The translations under genes were made by a program, and so were the position numbers. A DNA stretch of 64,000 nt from Euryarchaeota archaeon UBA202 (GTDB taxonomy: Archaea; Thermoplasmatota; E2; UBA202): positions 4,957 to 68,956 of the forward strand of contig DAQA01000029.1 of NCBI GenBank assembly GCA_002502685.1, in the 5' to 3' direction. The notes beneath the pieces are model-generated. The model was not told the DNA's origin and searched no databases. It saw nothing but the letters and a program-made list of their open reading frames with translations. Shown here in pieces: positions 4,441-51,618 of the stretch; positions within the stretch are counted from its first letter, which is position 1, and each line of letters starts with the position of its first letter.

Positions 4441-4839
4441 TCATTTGAGGACAGTATAATCTAAGAGTGTAAGTATCCATTCAAAGATTTTTTCGATAAT
4501 CCAGTGAAGATTTCCAAGTGGTGTCTTAGGGACATCAACAATGAGAGGACCAGACCAATCACTTTCCATCCCGTTTTCATCCTTTGCCTTCACCCTGACA
4601 TCATATATCCCCTTTGTTTCCCATTCATGAGATGCATTTATGGAAACACCTGATGGATAAGGACCCATCCATGAACTTAGTGATTGATCTCCCCAATCCC
4701 ATCTATAATATACCTGGTCCCCATCTATGTCCTCGGTACTGGTGGTATAGGCATACAAAGTTCCTGCTTCAACCTTGGTTTCACGATAATGGGGTATTGG
4801 GAGGATTACTGGCACGAAGCGCCACCACGGGATCACCAA
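4441..4839 (-). pseudogene. PKD-domain C-terminal segment, frameshifted relative to the upstream C25 peptidase ORF. Together they form a disrupted C25-PKD gene, or the shift is a sequencing error.
   Basis: The domain DGDQVYYRWDWGDQS...GPYPSGV...YDVRVKAKDENGMESDWSGP is homologous to the C-termini of 7170..8480 and 8689..9951. The two ORFs overlap at 4781-4839 in different frames. Confidence 0.5.
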
Positions 4840-6616
4840 ACAGATTTAATTGATAGTAACACCATCTCATCATGGATCCATCAATAAGATAAAGATTGTC
4901 TTCTTTTGAGTCTTGGTTTGCTTTACTAATAATGGGTATATTCTCTGAGAAGACAGCATCCCAGAATTCTCTCATATAATGATGGTTGTCTCCATCGGTA
5001 CTATTGGACCAATAAAAACCATAGCGTGCATTCATGATAACTGCAAAAGCACCATATTCTGATTTGACCGTTAAGGCCTCTGCCATACAGTCCTCCGCAT
5101 CAAATCCTCCCGCATTGCAACCCTGAGAATAAACAAAGCAATATTTCTCATTTGTGAAAGAGTCAATATCCTCGGGAACCATTTTTAAAGCATGCTGGTA
5201 ATTGCTATGTCCTAAATGGTTTATGATATGAACACCATTATTGATATGATTTATGAGTTCTGTGTTCGGCCAGTTACCATCCGGCCAATCTCGGTCATAA
5301 AGTTTTGTGACATTAAATTTTTCTGAGGGTATCCCCCCAGTTTTATATCCCGAGTGATTACTTTGATCAATGAGTTCATCCATATACTCTGCCCCATATG
5401 TTACAGAATCAAGTTCTTCTGCTGCCATTAATATGCTTTTTAGGTAATCGTTGGCCTGGATGCTCATATATCCAATTGTTTTAGTGACAAAATTGCTTGC
5501 TTCTTCCCCATTACCTACACAGGCTCTTCCCACGTATACTTCTGCCATAAGATCCACATCGGTCCCATTTTCTCCATCATGGGGTTCTCCCAATCTATCA
5601 TCGCCATCATAATTGTAGGGGTCATCAAGACAGGCATAAAAAAGGTCAGAAGGCATCATAGTCTCGTAATATTCTGTTGTTTTATCTTCGTCGTATCCTG
5701 AAACCCATAACTGGGGTGCAGGAACAATGTCATCATCGCCTCCAAGGAGGACATAGTCAATGCCATATTGGAGATATGCATCCTTAATATAATTGCGGAT
5801 ATCCATGGGGCTTTCCGGATTTCCGATTTCACTTACTGATTTGATTAATGTCTTTATCCCATTAGCCTCATGATGGATTTTTAGTGGCCGAAAACGCCAG
5901 GTAAAATTTTCTTCTGTTAGAATAAAAAGATCATAGTTTTTTGATAGTGAATAGCTGTCTTTCAGCTTTCGGTAGGTAATTGCTACATTAGGATTATCAA
6001 CTTTTTTTATGACTTCACATTCATCTTTGTATACTCCCCGAAATAATGAATTCGAACTGGTGGTTTCCATGGTCTTTATTGAAACCGTGAGATCTTTGTA
6101 GTAATATATCTCTCCCGTGGCAGGGATATAGTGAACCGGGTGAAGTTGTAAAATGAGTATTCCATAACCCCTGAAAAAATATGTTGTCACTTCAGTAAAA
6201 AGGGTTCCTGGAAATGGTTTCTCTAAAAGCGTGCCTTTCAATTGAGGTGTAACAACACTCTTCTCACCTGCAATGGTGCAAGGACTACCTGCAGAAATGA
6301 TGTTAAATCCTTCTCCTAATACTTTCTTCTCTCCGGCTGTGACCATAATATCGCCCACCTTTGTATTTGGCGGGAGCAGTACGGCCGCTCCTTTTATTGG
6401 TAGACAGGGTTCACCAGGTCTCCCATAATTTATTGTTCCATCCATAATTATCTTATCATAGATTACATCATTTACCACAATTGTTTCCAATCGCGGTGTC
6501 GTAAAAGAGTAAACAAGTGGTTTGAGCACCTTGCCATCGGTTCTTTCGCTTAATCCCACCACTAGTGTGCCACTGAGAAATAAGAAAAAACAGATGATTA
6601 CTTTAATTTTACCCAT
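4781..6616 (-). CDS. Secreted clan-CD cysteine peptidase, C25 gingipain-like catalytic domain. The C-terminal PKD domain continues in another frame (see 4441..4839).
   Basis: Signal peptide MGKIKVIICFFLFLSGTLVVG. His/Cys dyad context INHLGHSNYQHAL ... VYSQGCNAGGFD. Shares YVLLGGDDDIVP and DLMAEVYVGRA with the C25-like protein at 31024..32931. Confidence 0.6.
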   Translation of the reverse strand: MGKIKVIICFFLFLSGTLVVGLSERTDGKVLKPLVYSFTTPRLETIVVNDVIYDKIIMDGTINYGRPGEPCLPIKGAAVLLPPNTKVGDIMVTAGEKKVLGEGFNIISAGSPCTIAGEKSVVTPQLKGTLLEKPFPGTLFTEVTTYFFRGYGILILQLHPVHYIPATGEIYYYKDLTVSIKTMETTSSNSLFRGVYKDECEVIKKVDNPNVAITYRKLKDSYSLSKNYDLFILTEENFTWRFRPLKIHHEANGIKTLIKSVSEIGNPESPMDIRNYIKDAYLQYGIDYVLLGGDDDIVPAPQLWVSGYDEDKTTEYYETMMPSDLFYACLDDPYNYDGDDRLGEPHDGENGTDVDLMAEVYVGRACVGNGEEASNFVTKTIGYMSIQANDYLKSILMAAEELDSVTYGAEYMDELIDQSNHSGYKTGGIPSEKFNVTKLYDRDWPDGNWPNTELINHINNGVHIINHLGHSNYQHALKMVPEDIDSFTNEKYCFVYSQGCNAGGFDAEDCMAEALTVKSEYGAFAVIMNARYGFYWSNSTDGDNHHYMREFWDAVFSENIPIISKANQDSKEDNLYLIDGSMMRWCYYQLNLFGDPVVALRASNPPNTPLS

Positions 6617-7169
6617 ATTTTTGTTACCCTGCTCACTGAAGGGAAGAAATGGTTAAAAAACCTTTCTTTTCCAGACATTTTAAAAATTTTTATTAAAAAA
6701 TATAATGTATTATCCAAGTACCATCATTTACTGCTACTTATCCCTCTTTTAGTACCATTTCATCTATAAACTTTGATTTAGTTTTCTCGAAATTATTATA
6801 AATTTTTTTTTTGTACTTATTATGGGAGAAATAAGATCCCTCCCGGGGGACGACCGGGGGACTAATATCTATCAATAACGACTCGTTCCCATTAACTATT
6901 TTTTTCCCCGGCATTTCCCTCAAAAAATATTTCACTATCTATTTTTCTTTACCAGCATATGCCTAAAAAAAATAATATATCTATAAAATTGAAAACCACC
7001 ATCCCATAAATATCCATATCTCATACCCTACTGTCTTATCTTGCAATCAACAAGGCCAATATATTATAGACACATACTAAAATTATCTAGCTGTTCTAAT
7101 GAAATATATATAAAAAATATCGATTATCAATAATTATAAAAAAAAATTTATAAATATAGGCATCCTCAC

Positions 7170-8480
7170 ATGTTTGTGAAAATATCTATGTCCCATAAAA
7201 AAATAAAAATGTTATGTACCCTAAGCATAATTGCAGCAATATCTTTACTACCCTTGCATGCCACTGGCAATTATCTCCACAAAAATCCAAGCACCAATAA
7301 TGAAAATCACACATCAGAAAGACAAGCAATAGAGCTATTCAAAAAAGCACTTCCTTCCGCCACCTCCTATCAAGGCCACCTTCGTGTCTATATAGTAGAA
7401 CCCACATCGCGATGGAACGATTATTCTAACAAACCCTACCATTTTGGCCTTCTAGATTTCGCATTTAATGACAAGCTCTCAATACCCTACGGCGAAACGT
7501 ACAATACCACGCTAACCTGGGATCCAAACGCAGAAGGATACAGTGGAATAACTGAAGATAACCTCATGGTCATAGCCGTACTTTTTAATCCTGAAGTAAA
7601 ACAAGCCTATGCACAACCCCCCATGGGCAATAAATTCACTGCCCATTATGTCGATGCATGCGCTGGTTCAGTCCCAGGAGGCCAGGGCCATAATGTCGTA
7701 ACTGATGTTTTTACTCATACAGTTTTTGTTGAAGAGGCAACCGCCACCTGGTGTCCCTATTGCCCTGCTATGTCTGAAGCACTTTACACAATCTATAAGT
7801 CAAGAAGCTATCCCTTTTATTTTGTATCCCTAGTGGGAGATAAAAATACAGAGGCAAATGAAAGATTGCAAAATGATTACAATCTCTATGGATACCCCAC
7901 GTCATTTTTTGATGGAGGAGTGAAGGTTTTAGTAGGGGGATATGATGATGAAAAATATTATCGATCAAGGATTGAATCTAGTGGGCAGAAGGATGTTCAT
8001 GATTTGAATTTCAGTCTTTCTGTTGAGTGGCAACAGAATAGTAGTATTTCTATTGATTTGCAAATCACCAATAATGAAGAAACCGAAAATAGCCCCCCCG
8101 GGACGCCCACGATAACTGGGATTACAGAAGGAAAGATTGGCACTGAATATGAATATACCTTTGTTTCTACAGATCCTGATGGCGATGATATTTACTATTG
8201 GGTACAATGGGGTGAAGGCTGCCCCAGTCTAGAGTGGATTGGTCCCTATAGCTCAGGAGAAGAAGTGACAATGAATTATACCTGGGCTAATAAGGGGGAT
8301 TATAACATAAGTGTTAAAGCAAAAGATACTAATGATGCTGAAAGTGAATGGGGAACACTAGAGATACACATGCCTAAATCAATGGCAAAGTCTTTCTTTA
8401 ATGTTATCTGGCTTCTTCTTGATAAATTTAGGGAAAGTTTTCCATTTCTTCACTATTTTTTTACCCATCTAGGCATCTAG
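7170..8480 (+). CDS. Secreted thioredoxin-fold protein (CPYC active site) with a C-terminal PKD domain.
   Basis: Signal peptide MLCTLSIIAAISLLPLHA. ATATWCPYCPAM and a cis-Pro loop GYPTSFFDGG. C-terminal PKD: DPDGDDIYYWVQWGEG...GPYSSGE...NISVKAKDTNDAESEWG, followed by the tail FFNVIWLLLDKF. Confidence 0.6.
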   Translation: MFVKISMSHKKIKMLCTLSIIAAISLLPLHATGNYLHKNPSTNNENHTSERQAIELFKKALPSATSYQGHLRVYIVEPTSRWNDYSNKPYHFGLLDFAFNDKLSIPYGETYNTTLTWDPNAEGYSGITEDNLMVIAVLFNPEVKQAYAQPPMGNKFTAHYVDACAGSVPGGQGHNVVTDVFTHTVFVEEATATWCPYCPAMSEALYTIYKSRSYPFYFVSLVGDKNTEANERLQNDYNLYGYPTSFFDGGVKVLVGGYDDEKYYRSRIESSGQKDVHDLNFSLSVEWQQNSSISIDLQITNNEETENSPPGTPTITGITEGKIGTEYEYTFVSTDPDGDDIYYWVQWGEGCPSLEWIGPYSSGEEVTMNYTWANKGDYNISVKAKDTNDAESEWGTLEIHMPKSMAKSFFNVIWLLLDKFRESFPFLHYFFTHLGI

Positions 8481-8688
8481 CTCCCCATTTCCCTATTTTT
8501 TTTTATTTTTCTTTTAATATATCCGAATTATTTTTGTTAAAATACATTTTTTTTTGGATAGATTCATGATTATGCTTACTCTTTTCCATGATTTCATTGT
8601 CCTTACAATAAACAAAAAATTACCAAAAGTTGCAGACAGAAATGTTTATATAGAAATAAAGCAACTATAATATTAAGAAAATGGTGGA

Positions 8689-9951
8689 GTGCAAATGATC
8701 AAAATAAATAGGATAATCCTATTCTGTGCCATCGGCATATTGTTTTGTCAGTTTGCATTATCACCATTATTACAAAGTGCCCCCTATTTTAGAAACACTA
8801 GTGTCCAGACATTAAGCAATCCTGCTATAGTGTGTGATTCAGATCAATATGTATTATCTTCTTCAGAAAAAAATTCACTCAAAGAAGATTCTATTCCGTC
8901 TAGTTGGGATTGGCGAGACGCTGAACACGAGGGCATAAGGGGAGACTGGACAACCCCGGCGAAAAATCAAAGAAATAGATGTTATGCCTTTACCATCCTT
9001 GGCTCCCTTGAAAGCATTATTAAGATTCGAGAAAAGTGTGTTGATTTCACTCCTGATCTATCAGAACAATATCTTATTTCCCATTACACCTATGACGATT
9101 TTTTAAAAAATAGAAGTGGTGTCACTGTTTTTGAGGAATGTTGCCCCTATAAAGGATTATGTGGAATAAATCTCAAATATCATTTATTCAATATCACTGG
9201 ATTATCGCCTGACTGGGAAAAGTATTGCATACCTGTATCAAACTTTTCAGTAACAGTTCGCACTTCACCTCCTCTAAACCCTGAAGAAAGAAGAAATGAA
9301 CTTAAAAGCCTTATACTAGAAAATGGTCCTATTGGATTACGTATTTATGCACCAGGCATGAGTGTATTTACTGTAGGGTCTTTAAGAAATTGGGGTCTAT
9401 TCCACAGGGGCCCTAACGATTATTATTCTGGGGAAGCGCCTGCAGGGGTTTTTAATCAAGCAGTTGTTCTTGCGGGATGGAAGGATGATCTGATGATTCC
9501 AAATGGTGGATATTGGATTATCAAGAACTCTTGGGGTTCTCTTTGGGGATGTGACGGTTTTTTTAACCTTGAATACGGTAGTCTGAACTCTGGTTGTGGC
9601 TATTATATCCGGGTTGACTACGACCCTAGTTGTTTTAATTGGCCTCCCATGGGTAGCCCCGTTCTTGTTGCACCTTCTCATGTGAATTCTGAGAAGGAGT
9701 ATCGTTGCTCATTTAGTTCAATTGATCCAGAGGAGAATCAGTTTAATTATCAAGGGGAGGTGTACTATAATTTTTCTTTTGGAGATTATACGTTTAGTGG
9801 ATGGCTGGGTCCCTATAAATCTGGTGAACAATGCTCAGTTTTTCATGTTTGGAGTCAAAGTGGATCAGTTGATATCAAGGTTAAGGCTAGAGATGATCCA
9901 GATGGCGATGGAGATTTTTCAGATGGGGCTGAGACTTATTGGATGTCCTAA
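8689..9951 (+). CDS. Secreted papain-family (C1A) cysteine peptidase with a C-terminal PKD-like domain.
   Basis: Signal peptide. Cys-motif NQRNRCYAFTILGSLES matches QGxCGSCWAF, and YWIIKNSWGSLWGCDGFFNLEYG is the Asn/Trp region. The C-terminal PKD-like repeat ends at the stop codon. Confidence 0.7.
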   Translation: MQMIKINRIILFCAIGILFCQFALSPLLQSAPYFRNTSVQTLSNPAIVCDSDQYVLSSSEKNSLKEDSIPSSWDWRDAEHEGIRGDWTTPAKNQRNRCYAFTILGSLESIIKIREKCVDFTPDLSEQYLISHYTYDDFLKNRSGVTVFEECCPYKGLCGINLKYHLFNITGLSPDWEKYCIPVSNFSVTVRTSPPLNPEERRNELKSLILENGPIGLRIYAPGMSVFTVGSLRNWGLFHRGPNDYYSGEAPAGVFNQAVVLAGWKDDLMIPNGGYWIIKNSWGSLWGCDGFFNLEYGSLNSGCGYYIRVDYDPSCFNWPPMGSPVLVAPSHVNSEKEYRCSFSSIDPEENQFNYQGEVYYNFSFGDYTFSGWLGPYKSGEQCSVFHVWSQSGSVDIKVKARDDPDGDGDFSDGAETYWMS

Positions 9952-10147
9952 TCCCTGCAAGTTTTTTTCTAATTTTTACCGGTTTTTTTTTCCTCTTTTA
10001 CTTTCCTATATATCATGATGGCATAAATCACACTTCCACTATTCTATTCCTCCAAGATGGTACTGAACCCTAGGGACTTCTTGCCATTGCCCCCAGTTTT
10101 TCCTTGCTGCAATAACCTTTATTTCTCCCTATACCATACAGGCATCA

Positions 10148-11803
10148 ATGAGAAAAGAATGCATTGCTGTTCTTGTACTATTAATCATAATGGGGAATTT
10201 TTTTCATTCTTTCTTTATAAATTCTACTGCCTTGGATGCAAAAAATGTAAAAGGGAATCCTTATGATAATAACTTGTTTAATCAAACTGATATACCTACT
10301 TGGACAATTGGTGATACCTGGACCTATGAATCATCAGTTTTTTTTGAAGGGGAAAACGGCTCCTTTGATGGTTATATCGAAGATCTGGTGCAAACTGTTG
10401 TAAAACTAGTGAACCTTATGCAAAATGAAACCATCCCTTTTTTTGTGGTAAATCTAAGTGGTAATATTAGTGGTGAGTTGGCATATGGAATTATAACAGG
10501 TGATGTGGAAGGGTCAATACAGGGTGAACTTATTGTTAGGTTATCTGATCTTGCAATAATAAGGACAGAAATCAAATCCTGGGGTGAGATTGATACTTTT
10601 TTATTGACCTTTGACTATGGATTAAACAGTACATTACTGTTTCAACCTCCTCTGGAAAATTATGATTTTCCCCTTAAATTAGAAGACAACTGGGAAGTTT
10701 TTTCCCATGTTACATCGAAGGGGAGTTTCTATATCGAGGGCCTTATCAATGAATCACTCTCCGGTGATTCCTTAATGGGTGGATTTATGGAATTTATCAA
10801 TATACAAAATATAAGTGTTCCTGCGGGAATCTTTGAAAGCTGTCAATTAACAGCTCTTAACAATGAATCTTTTGATTATTGGTATTCCCCATTAGTAAAA
10901 AATTCTGTTAAGTCTGTGATAAATATGTCCAGTGATAATTCCACAGTAAACCTAGAGATGAATCTTTCCTCTTATTCCTTAATAAATCAACAAATAAACA
11001 TTACCCAACAGTTCACGCCACCAAGTGTGTACGCAAATGAATATGCAAACATTACAGGAGAGGTTAGAAACACGACTACCGGTGATGCCATTCCTAATGC
11101 ATCCGTTTTCTTACGCCTGCCATGTAACAATCAGGTGTGGAATGTCACCACAAATAATCTTGGTTATTATCACACAATGATTATGGCACCACTCATACAT
11201 GATAACACACCGTCAAATGATGATATCGGATCAGATGGTATCATTGCTTGGACTTCAGGGATTTATGGTGATGGCTGTAGAATAACAACATTGACCATAA
11301 AGGGGATAAACTACACATTTTCTCTCACTGAGGAGTGGAATTTAATTTCGATTCCAACAGAAAATATATGGACTGCGGAAACCCTGGGACAAAATATTAG
11401 TGGCTGTACCGTGGTGTCCATATTTTATGGAAACAACCAGACGTTTATATCCCATGTGGTGGGATCACCCCACGATGATTTTCCCATTGTAGATGGCGTG
11501 GGGTATTTCATGTATGTAACCAATGACAGCAACCTTTCCATGAGGAATTTACCCCTCAATAATATCAATATAACAATTCACCCTGAGTGGAACCTTATTG
11601 GCTGGTATCATGACTATGTTACCACGGCGGAGTCCCTGGGGGCTGCCATTGCTAATTGTACCGTGGTTTCCATGTTTGATGGGGTCAGTAAGAATTTTAC
11701 CACGCATGTGGTGGGGACACCCCATGATGATTTCACTATTGAAACCGGTATGGGTCTTTTTATCTATGCCACTGAAACAAGTATTTGGCAGGGTGAAGGG
11801 TAA
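10148..11803 (+). CDS. Secreted or surface glycoprotein-like protein carrying an internal tandem duplication of a roughly 70-aa C-terminal domain.
   Basis: Signal peptide MRKECIAVLVLLIIMG. Dense NxS/T sequons. Tandem units EWNLISIPTEN...CTVVSIFYGNNQTFISHVVGSPHDDFPIVDGVGYFMYV and EWNLIGWYHDY...CTVVSMFDGVSKNFTTHVVGTPHDDFTIETGMGLFIYA. Confidence 0.5.
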   Translation: MRKECIAVLVLLIIMGNFFHSFFINSTALDAKNVKGNPYDNNLFNQTDIPTWTIGDTWTYESSVFFEGENGSFDGYIEDLVQTVVKLVNLMQNETIPFFVVNLSGNISGELAYGIITGDVEGSIQGELIVRLSDLAIIRTEIKSWGEIDTFLLTFDYGLNSTLLFQPPLENYDFPLKLEDNWEVFSHVTSKGSFYIEGLINESLSGDSLMGGFMEFINIQNISVPAGIFESCQLTALNNESFDYWYSPLVKNSVKSVINMSSDNSTVNLEMNLSSYSLINQQINITQQFTPPSVYANEYANITGEVRNTTTGDAIPNASVFLRLPCNNQVWNVTTNNLGYYHTMIMAPLIHDNTPSNDDIGSDGIIAWTSGIYGDGCRITTLTIKGINYTFSLTEEWNLISIPTENIWTAETLGQNISGCTVVSIFYGNNQTFISHVVGSPHDDFPIVDGVGYFMYVTNDSNLSMRNLPLNNINITIHPEWNLIGWYHDYVTTAESLGAAIANCTVVSMFDGVSKNFTTHVVGTPHDDFTIETGMGLFIYATETSIWQGEG

Positions 11804-30460: not shown

Positions 30461-30976
30461 GTGAACCAAAAATGGATCAATGTCATGGTTGTTGCCATAA
30501 TCGTGGTAACACTCGCCTTTGGCTTCACCTGGATTATCCGAGAGGAACACAAATCCATCCAGGATCTACAATTGAGCCTTAGGGGCATCAAACTCATTGG
30601 TTTTAAATTCACCCCAGGAAGACTTTTACCCTCGGGTATGACCCTGGAAATGGCATTAGATGCCCATAATCCCAATGACCTAGATGTAGCCATCTATGAT
30701 CTTGAATATGGTGTATTTATCAACGATATATTTGTGGGGAACGGATCATTAAGTGAGAAAGAAAAGATTACTATCCCCCAAAATCAAACACGAGAAATCA
30801 CCATATCATATACTGCTAACCTAACCGTTCTTCCTGCGGTTGCCATCACAACCATACAAAATATTATCGATAAAGAAGAGAGTTATTGGGAAATCATTGG
30901 CATCGTCTATGTAGATACACCCCTAGGCAAGGACACATATCCCTTTTCATGGACCTATTCACCCCTAGATTCGTGA
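30461..30976 (+). CDS. Membrane-anchored LEA_2/NDR1-like (water-stress/Hin1-like) domain protein.
   Basis: N-terminal TM (VMVVAIIVVTLAFGFTWII) followed by a roughly 140-aa beta-rich domain. Weak family recognition. Confidence 0.3.
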   Translation: MNQKWINVMVVAIIVVTLAFGFTWIIREEHKSIQDLQLSLRGIKLIGFKFTPGRLLPSGMTLEMALDAHNPNDLDVAIYDLEYGVFINDIFVGNGSLSEKEKITIPQNQTREITISYTANLTVLPAVAITTIQNIIDKEESYWEIIGIVYVDTPLGKDTYPFSWTYSPLDS

Positions 30977-31023
30977 TAGATTTTTATAGCAACATAATAT
31001 TCTTTATTATGGTGATAAATGAT

Positions 31024-32931
31024 ATGAAAACCAAAATCCTTGTCATCCCGGTTTTAATAATTCTTCTGACAAGCACAATCACCCTTGCCCATAGAGACAT
31101 AAATGACACACAGGAACTCTCCCTAACACACCATTTTTCACCGCCCTTAATTACAGATGATGGAAACTCGGTAAGTATCTCCATACCTGAAGCCTCCTCA
31201 TGTGATTATACCCCGGGTGAGCCTCTTCTCCCTGTTCATACAGAAATACTACCTTTCCCCATAGGGACCCATATAACAAAAATCATGAGCGCCCCCAGCA
31301 CCATTCATACCGTATCTCTTCCAAAACAAATACAAAAAACCCCTGATCCTTTCTCCCTCACCACACATTATCCTTCCTCAAATCCAGGCACTACAGCACC
31401 AGTCACAGCTCCCTCTCCTGTTCAATGGTATAGCTTCCATTTGGGGATTGGAAGGCATGAAAACAATCCCACTCTTTTTCTATCCCTTACCGTGTACCCC
31501 TGTCAATATAACGCTTTAACCAACGAATTATACTATATACAGGACATAACCTTCTCTATCCAGTACACCACCCCCCAGGCCCTCCTGTCCCTTCCAGATG
31601 GCTATAATCTGCTTATCATTTCTCCTGTCCAGTTTCACACTGACCTTCAAAATTTAGTTTCCCATAAAGAAAGCCATGGCCTTAAAACCAAACTGGTGAC
31701 CACTGAAGAAATCTATACCGGTGACTATTTCCCGGTCATGGGTAGGGATGATGCAGAAAAAATCAAATATTTCATAAAAAACGCTCTTGAGGAATGGGGC
31801 ATTGATTACGTGCTCTTGGTTGGAGGGTTAACCTCACAAATAATGGGTGACACCTGGCACGCCCCCGTGAGATATTCACATCTTGTTACCACGGGTGGAT
31901 ATGGTGAAAAAAGCTACCTGACAGATCTTTATTTTGCAGATATATACAAAAGTGACGACCAGGGCAACCCGGTCTTTGATGACTGGGATTCAAATGGAAA
32001 TAATATATTTGCGGAATGGCCCCGGTTTGGCAGTAGGGATGAACTAGATTTGTACCCCGATGTCTATGTCGGCCGTCTTGCCTGTCGGAATACACAGGAG
32101 GTACAAACAGTCATAGACAAAATCAAAACCTATGAAAACACACAGGATCCATCATGGTTCAAGCGATTGGTGCTCGCCGGGGGAGACACCTTTAATGATC
32201 AAACGGGACATAACTATTATGAAGGAGAAATCTCCAATCAACGGGTCTTGGAGATCCTTTCCAGCTTTGAGGCACAACGTATCTGGTATACCCTAGATAA
32301 TTTTAAACAAAAAAATATTGTGGATGCCATTAGCAAGGGATGTGGATTCGTCCATCTTTCCGGTCACGGAAGCCCAGGTATGTGGATGGCTAAGGACTTC
32401 ACCGATGACCCCCAGGGGGAATACCTCTTGGGTCTGGATGTCTATCACATGCCTCAATTATCCAACAAGGACCAATACCCCATCGTGGTAATTGGAGGCT
32501 GCCATAACAGCTTGTTTAATGTCACCTTCCTGGGAAGCCTCATAGGTTGCATCAAATCACTCACTGGGTCCCCCACATGGTATTGGATGCCCATCCCTGA
32601 ATGTTTTGGGTGGTGGCTGGTCAAGCAGCCCCAGGGCGGTGCCATTGCAACTCTTGGTTGCACGGGTCTTGGTTTAGGAACAATTGGTGATTCCAACCAG
32701 GATGATATCCCTGATGCTCTCCAGTTTTTGCTAACATGGCTTGAACTTCGTTTTTTTGAGGCATATGCACAGGACAACATTACCATGTTAGGGCACACAT
32801 GGGGAACTGCCATAACTGACTATATCCATACCTTTGATTGTTATCGGGATAAAGGAGACCAAAAAACAGTGGAAGAATGGATTCTCCTCGGTGATCCCTC
32901 CCTTATGATAGGAGGATATCCCATCTGCTAG
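31024..32931 (+). CDS. Secreted clan-CD cysteine peptidase, C25 gingipain-like. The ORF extends to 30886; the likely start is MKTKIL at 31024.
   Basis: Signal peptide MKTKILVIPVLIILLTSTITLA. His GFVHLSGHGSPGMW and Cys IVVIGGCHNSLFN. YVLLVGG and PDVYVGRLACRN are shared with 4781..6616. Confidence 0.65.
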   Translation: MKTKILVIPVLIILLTSTITLAHRDINDTQELSLTHHFSPPLITDDGNSVSISIPEASSCDYTPGEPLLPVHTEILPFPIGTHITKIMSAPSTIHTVSLPKQIQKTPDPFSLTTHYPSSNPGTTAPVTAPSPVQWYSFHLGIGRHENNPTLFLSLTVYPCQYNALTNELYYIQDITFSIQYTTPQALLSLPDGYNLLIISPVQFHTDLQNLVSHKESHGLKTKLVTTEEIYTGDYFPVMGRDDAEKIKYFIKNALEEWGIDYVLLVGGLTSQIMGDTWHAPVRYSHLVTTGGYGEKSYLTDLYFADIYKSDDQGNPVFDDWDSNGNNIFAEWPRFGSRDELDLYPDVYVGRLACRNTQEVQTVIDKIKTYENTQDPSWFKRLVLAGGDTFNDQTGHNYYEGEISNQRVLEILSSFEAQRIWYTLDNFKQKNIVDAISKGCGFVHLSGHGSPGMWMAKDFTDDPQGEYLLGLDVYHMPQLSNKDQYPIVVIGGCHNSLFNVTFLGSLIGCIKSLTGSPTWYWMPIPECFGWWLVKQPQGGAIATLGCTGLGLGTIGDSNQDDIPDALQFLLTWLELRFFEAYAQDNITMLGHTWGTAITDYIHTFDCYRDKGDQKTVEEWILLGDPSLMIGGYPIC

Positions 32932-49469: not shown

Positions 49470-50774
49470 TTAGAATTCCTTCCTAAATTTTTCTCTAATG
49501 ACTAAGGCAACTACATTTAAGATTAAGATAATTGTGAGCAATATAAGGGCAGTGGACCAAGCATTTTGCATCCGGGCCGCCACTTCAACCTCGTCTCCAA
49601 GCCCCCCACGCATACCAAAAAGGGTGTAGAGATGGGTGGGGAGTGAGGCAACCATTCCCAACAAGTTAGGGGGCATCTTGATGATTAATGTACTAACAAA
49701 AAGTAAAGGTGCAGTTTCGCCAGCTGCTTCACCAATCCCCAATACAACCCCTGTAATAATGCCTGGAAGGGAAGGAGGAAGCACAACTCTCCTAATTGTT
49801 TGCCATTTAGTGGCACCCAAGGCAAGGCTTCCCTCCCTGAGACCCTGAGGTATACTTTTTAGCGCCTCGGCTGACGATCGAATAATCATGGGAAGGGCAT
49901 AAAAACTCAGAACAAGGCCCCCCGTAAGAAACGATATACCAAATATGGGAACAAAAAATGCCAAGGCAAACAAACCAAAAACAATAGAGGGGACACCCCG
50001 CAATATACTGACAGCCATTTTAATCACTCGAACCATAAAGTGGCCACCAGCATACTCTTCTAGATATATTGCTGCACCAATACCAAGGGGAACAGCGATT
50101 ACAAACATGATAAACATTAATAACAAAGTACCCACAATAGCCGGTAATATCCCCCCTGATTCACCGAGTCCTCTCACATCACTAGTGAGAAATTCCCACG
50201 TAATACCCGGAGCGCCATTGATGGTTACCTGCCCAATGATTATGACTAGAGGATAAAGTATGATTAGCATACATACCACGAGTAAAAAATATGCTCCATA
50301 CTGGTTACCCAAAGGCTTAAAATTAAAAAGGGCCCCCAAGGATAACAACGCCCCAATCAAGCCAAATATAATTAAGCCAATGGAAAAAATCATATTGTAT
50401 GTCAAGCTTGCACTTAGGCCATAATCCTGGAGACCCACCGATGAAGGATAAGCCGTACTTACAAAGACTATAAGAAATAAAATCAGGGAAAAAATCAAGA
50501 TACGAACACTCTTTTTTTTGTTTATTTTGATGCTGCTTATACCTGTTAATAAAAAACAAATACCAAAAATAAGAAACAGGTACCCATAGATATCCTCGCC
50601 GATATAATTCAATGTTGCCACAATCGTAAATCCCGCTAGGGCATAAAGGCACGATAGACAAAGAGAAAGTAAGAAAAGTAATCTTTGGAGAGAAACATAT
50701 TCATAAAGCATTTTTGTATTAATTATTTTCCCAAATACATTCCTCATGCTATCCCCCCTTGAATTTTTTTTCAA
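49470..50774 (-). CDS. pstA: Phosphate ABC transporter permease PstA. An N-terminal extension makes it longer than typical.
   Basis: ABC permease EAA-region and TM topology. Gene order pstS-pstC-pstA-pstB. Confidence 0.8.
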   Translation of the reverse strand: MKKNSRGDSMRNVFGKIINTKMLYEYVSLQRLLFLLSLCLSCLYALAGFTIVATLNYIGEDIYGYLFLIFGICFLLTGISSIKINKKKSVRILIFSLILFLIVFVSTAYPSSVGLQDYGLSASLTYNMIFSIGLIIFGLIGALLSLGALFNFKPLGNQYGAYFLLVVCMLIILYPLVIIIGQVTINGAPGITWEFLTSDVRGLGESGGILPAIVGTLLLMFIMFVIAVPLGIGAAIYLEEYAGGHFMVRVIKMAVSILRGVPSIVFGLFALAFFVPIFGISFLTGGLVLSFYALPMIIRSSAEALKSIPQGLREGSLALGATKWQTIRRVVLPPSLPGIITGVVLGIGEAAGETAPLLFVSTLIIKMPPNLLGMVASLPTHLYTLFGMRGGLGDEVEVAARMQNAWSTALILLTIILILNVVALVIREKFRKEF

Positions 50775-51618
50775 TACGGTATTGCATGATTTCTGAAATA
50801 ATACTCATGACACTCACAATTATAAAAAGAAATACACCAGCTGCAAACAACACATTAACTTTTAAACCATAAGCTTCACCCCAATGACCTGCAATTAAAG
50901 AGGTGAGAACAGGGCCTGATTCAAATATATCAAACCACGAATCAGGAGCACGTGTAATGGCGCTAACCACCATCAGAACAGCCATTGTTTCACCTAAGGC
51001 TTTCCCTACCCCCAGGGTTGCTCCCGCAAAGATACCAGATGAGGCAGCAGGAAATGTTACTTTTTTTATCGTCTGCCAGGGAGTGGCTCCTAGGGCCAAT
51101 GAAGCTTCCTTTATTTCTCGTGGAACACTTTTTAGGGAGTCATCAGAAATGCTAATTATTATCGGAAGGGTCATGACTCCAATTATAAGCCCTCCCGCCA
51201 GCAAAGAAAAGCCAGAAATCATTCTAAAAGAATCTGTAAGAAAGGGAACTAATATAATTGCTCCTATAAATCCATAAACCACCGATGGTATCCCCGCCAG
51301 TACTTCAATAATGGGTTTTAATATCCGACGTATCCATACGGATGCCACCTCTGATAAAAAGATACCCCCTCCAATACCTAAAGGATAGGCAATTAATAAG
51401 GCGCCACCGGTTACAATAAGCGATCCCCTAATTGCGCCCCCGAGACCCAGTTCATTGGAAAAGTCCGTACTAAAAATATCTCCCCCGACTTCAATAAATG
51501 CAGGGATTGCCTCTTTGAATAGAAAAAAGAATATAAAAAAGATAATAAAAATAGAAAAAGAAGCTATCAAAAGAAAAATACCCTGAATGATATGTTCCTT
51601 TGATAGCTTTTTTTTCAT
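50749..51618 (-). CDS. pstC: Phosphate ABC transporter permease PstC.
   Basis: Permease TM topology and gene order. Confidence 0.8.
   Translation of the reverse strand: MKKKLSKEHIIQGIFLLIASFSIFIIFFIFFFLFKEAIPAFIEVGGDIFSTDFSNELGLGGAIRGSLIVTGGALLIAYPLGIGGGIFLSEVASVWIRRILKPIIEVLAGIPSVVYGFIGAIILVPFLTDSFRMISGFSLLAGGLIIGVMTLPIIISISDDSLKSVPREIKEASLALGATPWQTIKKVTFPAASSGIFAGATLGVGKALGETMAVLMVVSAITRAPDSWFDIFESGPVLTSLIAGHWGEAYGLKVNVLFAAGVFLFIIVSVMSIISEIMQYRIEKKFKGG

Follow-up and report, generated by a model that had tools for sequence, protein, structure and literature searches.

HBP35 of P. gingivalis (5y1a) is an extracytoplasmic surface CxxC protein of an organism with C25 peptidases, and it carries a C-terminal sorting module. 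It is exported as a type IX secretion system (T9SS) cargo and shows CxxC-dependent insulin-reducing activity (PMC2907840). GILT is a CxxC reductase located in a digestive compartment beside cysteine peptidases of families C1 and C13; by reducing disulfides it denatures substrates, and in the extracellular resorption lacuna it enhances cathepsin K (PMC8064644). Proteins of the TlpA/ResA/CcmG group are exported thioredoxin-fold reductases with specific extracytoplasmic targets. The protein described here resembles each of these in part. It is encoded by a gene (hereafter the redox gene) in a stretch of 64,000 nucleotides from Euryarchaeota archaeon UBA202 (contig DAQA01000029.1, positions 4,957 to 68,956), which as a whole is called the window. 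The protein is a thioredoxin-fold oxidoreductase of the extracytoplasmic kind, which has a novel β-sandwich as its obligate partner and relatives with a putative selenocysteine, and it does not constitute a categorically new system. As to its role, we see an even chance that it is a secreted, probably surface-retained thiol-disulfide oxidoreductase, which likely opens disulfide-locked proteins and/or keeps the catalytic Cys of C25 peptidases reduced.

The layout of the gene was determined with an alignment of 64 homologues (A1), a profile of the thioredoxin sub-domain built from 39 diverse family members (A4) and an AlphaFold2 (AF2) model of the 436-aa protein (mean pLDDT 86):

7170..8480, + strand: gene of the secreted thioredoxin-fold protein, 436 aa (open reading frame (ORF) list; exact protein in public assemblies; A1)
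7170..7268, + strand: predicted signal peptide, aa 1-33, with a basic n-region HKKIK, an h-region MLCTLSIIAAISLLPL (16-residue hydrophobic core) and a c-region H-A-T-G
7359..7697, + strand: highly conserved β-sandwich, aa 64-176 (YxGxLRVYIVEPxSRW...PYHFGFLDFA...AHYVDA), all β, pLDDT >90
7698..8081, + strand: thioredoxin/glutaredoxin-type domain, aa 177-304 (AF2 topology, Foldseek, A4)
7752..7763, + strand: active site C195-P-Y-C198 (TGT CCC TAT TGC), within WCPYCP of aa 194-199
7896..7898, + strand: Pro243 of 'GYPT', at the cis-proline loop position just before β3, invariant in A1 and A4
8085..8378, + strand: PKD domain, aa 306-403 (identity to 4xed_A, Foldseek)
8379..8477, + strand: conserved helical C-terminal tail, aa 404-436 (AF2 helices at 406-434; tail hidden Markov model (HMM))

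According to A1, the conserved start is probably Met7 at 7188, and the stop codon is at 8478-8480. The N-terminus is modelled as a helix (9-25) followed by disorder (29-63), and alignment and model together place a disordered linker at aa 34-63.

In the AF2 model, the thioredoxin-type region shows the connectivity β-α-β-α-β-β-α, with β1 at 185-191, α1 at 198-211, β2, α2, β3 at 244-247, β4 and α3 at 261-272. Two further strands at 279-301 follow α3, the pLDDT exceeds 90 over aa 185-272, and C195 and C198 are located at the start of helix α1. Foldseek retrieved Thermus, ancestral-archaeal and E. coli thioredoxins, with matches to 2cvk, 2ynx and 4x43 at target template modelling (TM) scores of ~0.65-0.67. 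Profile A4 matched PDB thioredoxins (E=2e-5 to 1e-4), and CxxC as well as Pro fell into register. The Pfam models Thioredoxin_2 and Thioredoxin reached 21.3-24.2 bits, under the gathering score of 27. Despite this sub-threshold result, the domain is assigned a thioredoxin fold, as predicted by three independent lines which agree (model, Foldseek and profile).

The core topology, the W-C-x-x-C at the start of α1, the acid at -6 and the Pro of the cis-Pro loop are shared with the Thermus thioredoxin 2cvk and the M. jannaschii redoxin 1fo5. The CPYC of the protein is the classical glutaredoxin dipeptide, and glutaredoxin-like 'YPT' and 'VGGYDD' elements are also present; unlike in glutaredoxins, the glutathione-binding 'DD' is not conserved in the family, and the Pfam Glutaredoxin match (E=0.022) is below the cut-off. 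The protein differs from both thioredoxins and glutaredoxins in being secreted, in its obligate fusion to a novel β-sandwich (in either order), in its PKD domain and tail and in scoring below the Pfam gathering thresholds. In contrast to the TlpA/ResA/CcmG group, no Redoxin or AhpC-TSA match was obtained from Pfam or NCBIfam, none of the insertions of the group is present and no CcdA/DsbD or cytochrome-maturation genes are located nearby.

The CxxC of the active site almost certainly is redox-catalytic, judging from a near-invariant Cys pair, a Glu at -6, a Pro at the cis-Pro position and the putative selenocysteine that replaces the first Cys in 12 bacterial homologues (see below). In detail, the CxxC is kept in 119/120 homologues, C198, P199 and P243 are invariant in A1 with C195 at least 90% conserved, and A4 shows no variation at either Cys. 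Counted from the first Cys, Glu is found at -7 in 119/119 homologues (Glu188 here) and at -6 in 116/119 (Glu189, where E. coli thioredoxin has its buried acid Asp26), and Trp or Tyr at -1 in 114/119 (Trp194). P243 aligns with the thioredoxin cis-Pro in profile alignments. The dipeptide within the CxxC is Pro-Tyr in 95/119 homologues, and PH variants also occur. The CxxC pair provides the only conserved cysteines of the mature protein, so there is no need for a structural disulfide.

The same site could belong to a general folding catalyst of the secretome, namely a DsbA/PDI-like oxidase or isomerase that makes or shuffles disulfides in exported proteins, peptidases included. The CPYC/CPHC-type dipeptide is near that of DsbA, and the loop 'YGYPT..F.DGG' is like that of PDI a-domains, with PDIA3, PDIA4 and TXNDC5 among the profile matches. 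Complementation of a dsbA mutant of E. coli by an hbp35-carrying plasmid has also been reported (PMC2907840). Moreover, the surroundings of the redox gene are in general islands of genes for secreted PKD proteins, since PKD-bearing secreted proteins make up 12/73 immediate neighbours vs 6/144 (p=0.003). For instance, in the single-cell genome SCGC AB-539-C06 of MBG-D (Marine Benthic Group D), the neighbours are NosD-PKD, M28, FG-GAP-PKD and PKD proteins. Replacement of Cys by selenocysteine is, in our view, more typical of reductive or peroxidatic enzymes. There is no DSBA match in Pfam, and the thioredoxin region of ~90 aa is modelled by AF2 without the helical insertion of DsbA. No DsbB/VKOR-like re-oxidant was found near the redox gene. 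The PKD domain of the protein itself and that of 4xed are free of disulfides, and the C1 homologue of the window does not have the canonical papain Cys22. The sediments in which these anaerobic hosts live are sulfidic (PMC6461988), and oxidants are lacking there. A folding catalyst is considered fairly unlikely, and a reductase or isomerase is favoured because of the sulfidic anaerobe hosts, the lack of an oxidant-regenerating partner nearby and the absence of structural disulfides.

The 436-aa protein is almost certainly extracytoplasmic, as indicated by the conserved signal peptide, by a PKD domain and tail in common with secreted peptidases and by the dockerin or T9SS domains that bacterial homologues carry in the same position. 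A signal-peptide-like segment occurs in 99/101 full-length homologues, and in the present protein no stretch other than the N-terminal segment has a Kyte-Doolittle mean >1.6 over 19 residues. The PKD domain shows 58% identity (E=1e-32) to 4xed_A, the solved PKD domain from another MBG-D archaeon, and superposes on it in Foldseek with a TM score of 0.96 (E=1e-13, root-mean-square deviation 0.8 Å). Its Pfam PKD score of 21.8 bits is just under the cut-off of 23.5. The earlier note, made from the letters of the window, had claimed the signal peptide, the WCPYCP active site, the cis-Pro loop and the PKD domain, and each of them was found again by the above analyses. It had also named a cytoplasmic location or a CPYC not conserved in orthologues as outcomes that would speak against its reading; the findings on the signal segment and the dipeptide point the other way in both cases.

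An HMM of the last ~50 residues matches the extreme C-termini of C25, C1 and M28 peptidases, of metallo-β-lactamase-PKD proteins and of many PKD proteins in the loci of Thermoplasmatota. The consensus of this tail is roughly MPK-x(6-9)-FLxxFLExHPxxFPLLRQLLGL. The tail is amphipathic, and with a Kyte-Doolittle maximum of 0.9 it is too polar for a transmembrane helix. The NCBIfam models of sorting signals do not recognise it. Since it sits where bacterial homologues carry dockerin or T9SS domains, it is a candidate that may act as a common sorting or anchoring signal, in which case the redox protein and the peptidases would reach the same place. The tail was also observed on the C-termini of many proteins in seven of the loci collected.

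Among extracytoplasmic proteins with a sorting module, HBP35 is related to the redox protein at most at the superfamily level of sequence; it does not have the β-sandwich and it binds hemin. The weak match of a family profile to 5y1a (E=0.11), located around the CxxC, covers 29 aa, is absent with a paralogue as the query and does not appear among the 50 best Foldseek matches listed, so that homology to HBP35 was not established. A heme- or nutrient-binding surface receptor like HBP35, in which the CxxC would be secondary, could be suggested by this match and by the fact that HBP35 is a hemin-binding surface protein of a gingipain producer (PMC2907840), yet the near-invariant redox residues and the selenocysteine substitution point to catalysis, and such a receptor is very improbable.

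A second comparison concerns Omp28 (NF033782) and the 'Omp28-related selenoprotein' (NF045500), which share the Thr-x-x-Cys-x-x-Cys-Pro context and, in NF045500, have a selenocysteine form. Matches of the Omp28 type on the CxxC segment were found for the window protein and several paralogues (E 0.0015-0.012, 15-18 bits). Membership was rejected, as the window protein scored 16.6 and 15.0 bits (aa 182-220 only) against cut-offs of 150 and 200, respectively. The stronger NF045500 match of one bacterial homologue (L068) stems from its TSP3 repeats and C-terminal domain, not from the core. The relationship to Omp28 is remote at best.

The core of the protein (β-sandwich and thioredoxin domain) is covered by no curated family. 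It belongs to an undescribed two-domain family, in which a novel β-sandwich is joined to a minimal thioredoxin/glutaredoxin fold. There are 822 database homologues at E≤1e-3, mostly of 400-530 aa and from Thermoplasmatota metagenome bins. One of them is a 'hypothetical protein' of the above MBG-D single-cell genome, and several carry the JGI label 'thiol-disulfide isomerase/thioredoxin'. A HMMER scan of the core (aa 64-304) against 1.84 billion cluster representatives gave 868 clusters at E≤1e-3, 264 of them at E≤1e-30; the ~870 family clusters are defined at 50% identity. The family is found in Thermoplasmatota, Zixibacteria, Ignavibacteria/Ignavibacteriales, GN15, LCP-89 and others. The β-sandwich is always paired with the thioredoxin domain, in either order, with the thioredoxin domain first in many clusters; because of this pairing the two are regarded as one functional unit. 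The sandwich itself had no Pfam match even at E≤10 and no sequence relative in the PDB, and Foldseek returned just generic CARDB, SoxY and FN3 sandwiches. Literature searches gave no results for the family, for selenoproteins of the Omp28 type or for a part of thioredoxins in the proteolysis of MBG-D, and the M9B1D scaffold that bears a homologue has no entry in the Thermoprofundales transcriptome paper or its supplements. The description of the protein in the earlier note as an unusual redox partner was overstated: extracytoplasmic thioredoxin-fold proteins are common, and homologues had already been labelled as such by JGI.

Clusters of paralogues were observed in eleven Thermoplasmatota loci, with members of ~371 aa, ~483 aa, a small one of ~150 aa and one of ~660-680 aa. 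The longest has its thioredoxin domain ahead of the β-sandwich. A NapH-like polyferredoxin gene is often located near the paralogue cluster, on the opposite strand. Two conserved genes without Pfam match lie ahead of the homologue in twelve loci from Zixibacteria and Ignavibacteria: one of ~140 aa with DxDGDG repeats and one of ~385-420 aa with a signal peptide, which is possibly an outer-membrane barrel.

The paralogues bear on a further alternative, according to which the protein would handle an inorganic or small-molecule substrate at the surface, such as Cu(II), thiophilic metals, polysulfide or selenium/arsenic species, as a TlpA-like reductant or a binding protein. In the ~677-aa paralogue of one locus (L038), the module is joined to a copper-binding CopC domain, together with Big_5 and Y_Y_Y, and related loci have paralogues of the same length at the equivalent position. 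The β-sandwich shows unusually high conservation and resembles structurally the metal-binding CARDB domains (3idu), and H91, D96, D162, H183 and E188 are invariant or near-invariant. The frequent lack of a peptidase neighbour also agrees with such a role. On the other hand, the orthologue group itself has neither a metal-binding domain nor metal-transport neighbours, the enrichment of C25 and C1 genes at ±1 would be left unexplained, and the layout of the active site is that of a disulfide exchanger. This alternative is considered unlikely.

In 12 bacterial homologues from Zixibacteria, Ignavibacteriales and related groups, collected from nine of the loci, the gene had been split in two by ORF calling, and the apparent stop is each time a TGA that coincides precisely with the first Cys; the 12 TGA codons are independent. 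They are set in the context T-x-x-U-x-x-C-P, and beyond them the reading frame of the conserved protein goes on. A GC-rich hairpin of 5-7 bp is located 15-33 nt 3' of each TGA, with loops of the GGUCU or CGUGC type, which we take to resemble the upper stem-loop of the selenocysteine insertion sequence (SECIS) of E. coli fdhF. The mean local ΔG is -10.0 kcal/mol in the TGA-type genes vs -5.4 at the same position in 26 Cys-type bacterial homologues (Mann-Whitney p=1e-4). This difference appeared in the local-window analysis, and z-scores of the minimum free energy over the whole region 3' of the TGA codons were uninformative. The in-frame TGA and the SECIS-like hairpin indicate that the first Cys is a putative selenocysteine in these 12 homologues. 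Alternation of Cys and selenocysteine at the nucleophilic position is a classic mark of residues used in redox catalysis.

At their C-termini, the TGA-type proteins carry dockerin repeats or a sorting domain of the T9SS, and would therefore be exported too. They are likely secreted selenoproteins of a family that the selenoprotein models of NCBIfam do not cover.

Selenocysteine variants are typical of peroxide- or sulfenate-reactive enzymes as well. This, and the wide distribution of the family in anaerobes of redox-gradient sediments, would suit a surface antioxidant or repair enzyme that acts on sulfenic acids or peroxides of surface proteins after transient oxygen, with no specific peptidase partnership. 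Signatures of peroxiredoxins or GPx are lacking, the gene is unlinked to other oxidative-stress genes in the loci examined, and the proposal overlaps with the part of the preferred reading in which a catalytic Cys is kept reduced. As a separate explanation it is judged quite unlikely.

The relation of the redox gene to peptidases rests on its neighbours, which in the window are the following:

4781..6616, - strand: gingipain-like Peptidase_C25, 611 aa, with signal peptide and propeptide, divergent (Pfam E=9e-56)
4441..4839, - strand: PKD domain and C-terminal tail of the C25 gene, left over in another frame (Pfam PKD E=7e-10, tail HMM, alignment to the intact orthologue of L086)
6617..7169, no strand: divergent intergenic region from C25 to the redox gene, 553 bp, AT-rich
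8496..8555, + strand: oligo-T runs just past the stop of the redox gene, of archaeal-terminator type, a putative terminator
8689..9951, + strand: papain-family C1 homologue with signal peptide (Pfam Peptidase_C1 E=8e-15)
10148..11803, + strand: 551-aa protein with an N-terminal hydrophobic segment (weak CarboxypepD_reg match only)

The position between a C25 and a C1 gene, as claimed in the earlier note, was thus confirmed, and the conservation of this order, which the note had proposed as a check, was examined in 111 non-redundant orthologue loci (metagenome contigs included), with positions ±2 to ±6 as controls. C25 genes are found at -1 in 15/91 cases, 13 of them divergent, vs 16/591 at the control positions (odds ratio (OR) 7.1, p=1.3e-6), and C1 genes at +1 in 7/94 vs 3/591 (OR 15.8, p=6e-5). 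A first set of 42 archaeal orthologues had shown C25 in 7/73 immediate neighbours vs 3/144 at ±4 to ±6 (p=0.03). The link to peptidases is therefore specific in position and orientation and enriched, real but partial.

Several arrangements were recognised. A divergent C25 with a C1 gene downstream occurs in the clade of the window (core identity 84-100%), and this synteny is kept where the redox protein is 81% identical over its full length (84-88% over the core). In others, a divergent C25 is combined with a diphthamide-synthase gene downstream, C25 is placed on the same strand (L012, L040) or downstream (L154), or C1 alone follows in unrelated contexts (L019, L087, L100). In L005, C25, C13 and C1 genes surround the thioredoxin gene. 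The diphthamide-synthase gene (~222 aa) was observed to follow the redox gene in eleven loci of one clade, with or without an upstream C25. The divergent upstream neighbours of 630-637 aa in L017, L019 and L026, which by size could have been taken for C25, are threonyl-tRNA synthetases.

Within the window, the C25 at 4781..6616 keeps its catalytic His (about residue 470) and Cys500. In comparison with an intact 737-aa orthologue (L086:3208-5421), its gene has an 8-bp deletion at the PKD junction ('CCATTATC--------GTGAAACC'), because of which the PKD domain and tail are stranded in another frame. This break is found in two public assemblies of the contig. In place of the catalytic His159, the C1 homologue carries a Gln (CAA, 9457-9459), but it retains Cys25, Gln19 and Asn175, according to an alignment with papain and the C1 proteins of L019 and L005. 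The same His159 to Gln change occurs in the C1 orthologues of L086 and L090. The His is present in the C1 neighbours of L019, L087 and L100 and in the C1 gene a few genes downstream in L005. The C1 of the window is probably a maintained variant, predicted to be non-proteolytic. A tail-like ORF at 9722..10018, downstream of the C1 gene, was considered as a frameshifted tail and rejected, being a T-rich terminator-like stretch in another frame and without a match to the tail HMM.

Four consecutive genes, C25 (-), redox (+), the C1 homologue (+) and the 551-aa protein (+), encode N-terminal signal-like segments. The 551-aa protein shows an internal duplication near its C-terminus (…TAE(T/S)LG…CTVVS.F.G…F..HVVG.PHDDF…). 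A TATA-like TTTATA is located at 7147 in the 553-bp intergenic region, as a putative promoter element, and a further TATA-like box is found at 8645, ahead of the C1 gene. At ~6838-6862 the AT-rich region between C25 and the redox gene contains an odd GC-rich element (cctcccgggggacgaccgggggac); Rfam gave no credible match for it, only a sub-threshold one at chance level. A second gingipain-like C25 gene of 685 aa is found at 30874..32931 (+), and the same contig (L001) bears a third one, located shortly past the left end of the window.

A number of these observations weigh against a partnership of the redox protein with active cysteine peptidases. About 80% of the orthologue loci have no adjacent cysteine peptidase, and 8/15 of the C25 cases belong to one syntenic clade, which also keeps the gene of the cytoplasmic diphthamide synthase. 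Because descent alone can preserve neighbours, the p-values overstate independence, and part of the C25/C1 adjacency signal can be explained as inherited synteny. The density of C25 genes in these genomes raises the chance level of adjacency further. In the window, the C1 neighbour is without the catalytic His, and this Gln-bearing C1 together with the truncated C25 weaken the picture of two active cysteine peptidases. The oligo-T runs and TATA-like boxes suggest that the redox, C25 and C1 genes would form separate transcription units. No CcdA/DsbD-type electron conduit or CcdA-like ORF is evident in the 64-kb window. Deletion of hbp35 leaves the gingipain activity unchanged (PMC2907840), and for this reason an obligatory role in activation is counted against. 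Finally, the direction of catalysis is not readable from a sequence, and CPYC is a motif of intermediate potential. Of the earlier proposals, gene-order conservation holds in the enrichment of C25 at -1 and C1 at +1 and fails for the majority of loci; the redox partnership with the peptidases keeps the support of that adjacency and is weakened by the C1 without His, the apparently separate transcription and the missing electron donor.

A six-transmembrane ORF at 50749..51618 was considered as a CcdA/DsbD candidate and rejected, since it looks like part of an ABC (Pst-like) phosphate transporter, as judged from its neighbours only, which are a 12-transmembrane ORF and an ABC-ATPase-like ORF.

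For the preferred reading of a secreted thiol-disulfide oxidoreductase, export through a Sec-type signal peptide is strongly indicated, with the PKD domain and tail as on the secreted peptidases of the organism. So is a canonical redox site, with Cys195, at the N-terminus of α1, as the nucleophile, Cys198 as the resolving Cys, Glu189 at the place of the thioredoxin acid and Pro243 at the cis-Pro position. The following course can be proposed. Sulfidic sediments are the habitat of these anaerobic hosts, and in such anoxic surroundings the enzyme would work in the reducing direction. The reduced CxxC would attack a protein disulfide or an oxidised thiol, the resulting mixed disulfide would be resolved by Cys198, and the oxidised enzyme would be re-reduced by ambient sulfide, small thiols or a membrane donor. 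Its most likely job would be to make disulfide-locked detrital proteins accessible to digestion by opening them, and/or to maintain the catalytic Cys of co-localised gingipain-like C25 peptidases in the reduced state. Extracellular proteolysis is the likeliest context because of the enriched divergent pairing with C25 and the shared tail, and it is plausible that the protein assists the digestion of proteins outside the cell.

A GILT-like role in proteolysis would be the best guess by analogy. GILT is a precedent for the two actions proposed, the opening of substrates and the support of peptidase activity, the latter in its case that of cathepsins. The analogy is functional: there is no sequence relationship and no Pfam GILT match, and organisms and compartments differ. 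In a wider and more tentative version, which is possible although we would not expect it, the β-sandwich and thioredoxin module would represent an undescribed extracellular Cys/selenocysteine oxidoreductase family, a microbial counterpart of GILT, with the bacterial UxxC forms as a new secreted selenoprotein family. Its members would be exported by means of archaeal tails, dockerins or T9SS domains, and would serve as dedicated disulfide reductases for cross-linked detrital protein, with gingipain-like peptidases kept active in anoxic sediments.

Protein buried in marine sediments has Thermoprofundales (MBG-D) and their neighbours among its main degraders, and their extracellular cysteine peptidases have been the focus so far. 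The upkeep of extracellular thiol-dependent enzymes and the opening of disulfide-stabilised substrates were unaddressed in that work. If the link to peptidases is wrong, the protein would be ordinary among extracytoplasmic proteins of the thioredoxin fold, apart from its unusual domain partner. The shared tail may be an unrecognised archaeal signal for surface sorting or anchoring. The selenocysteine-type homologues show strong catalytic selection on the active site and may form an unlisted family of secreted selenoproteins. An exported redox enzyme which carries the sorting module of the peptidases and is found near C25 genes beyond chance would be a testable candidate for the missing step in the degradation of protein by these archaea.

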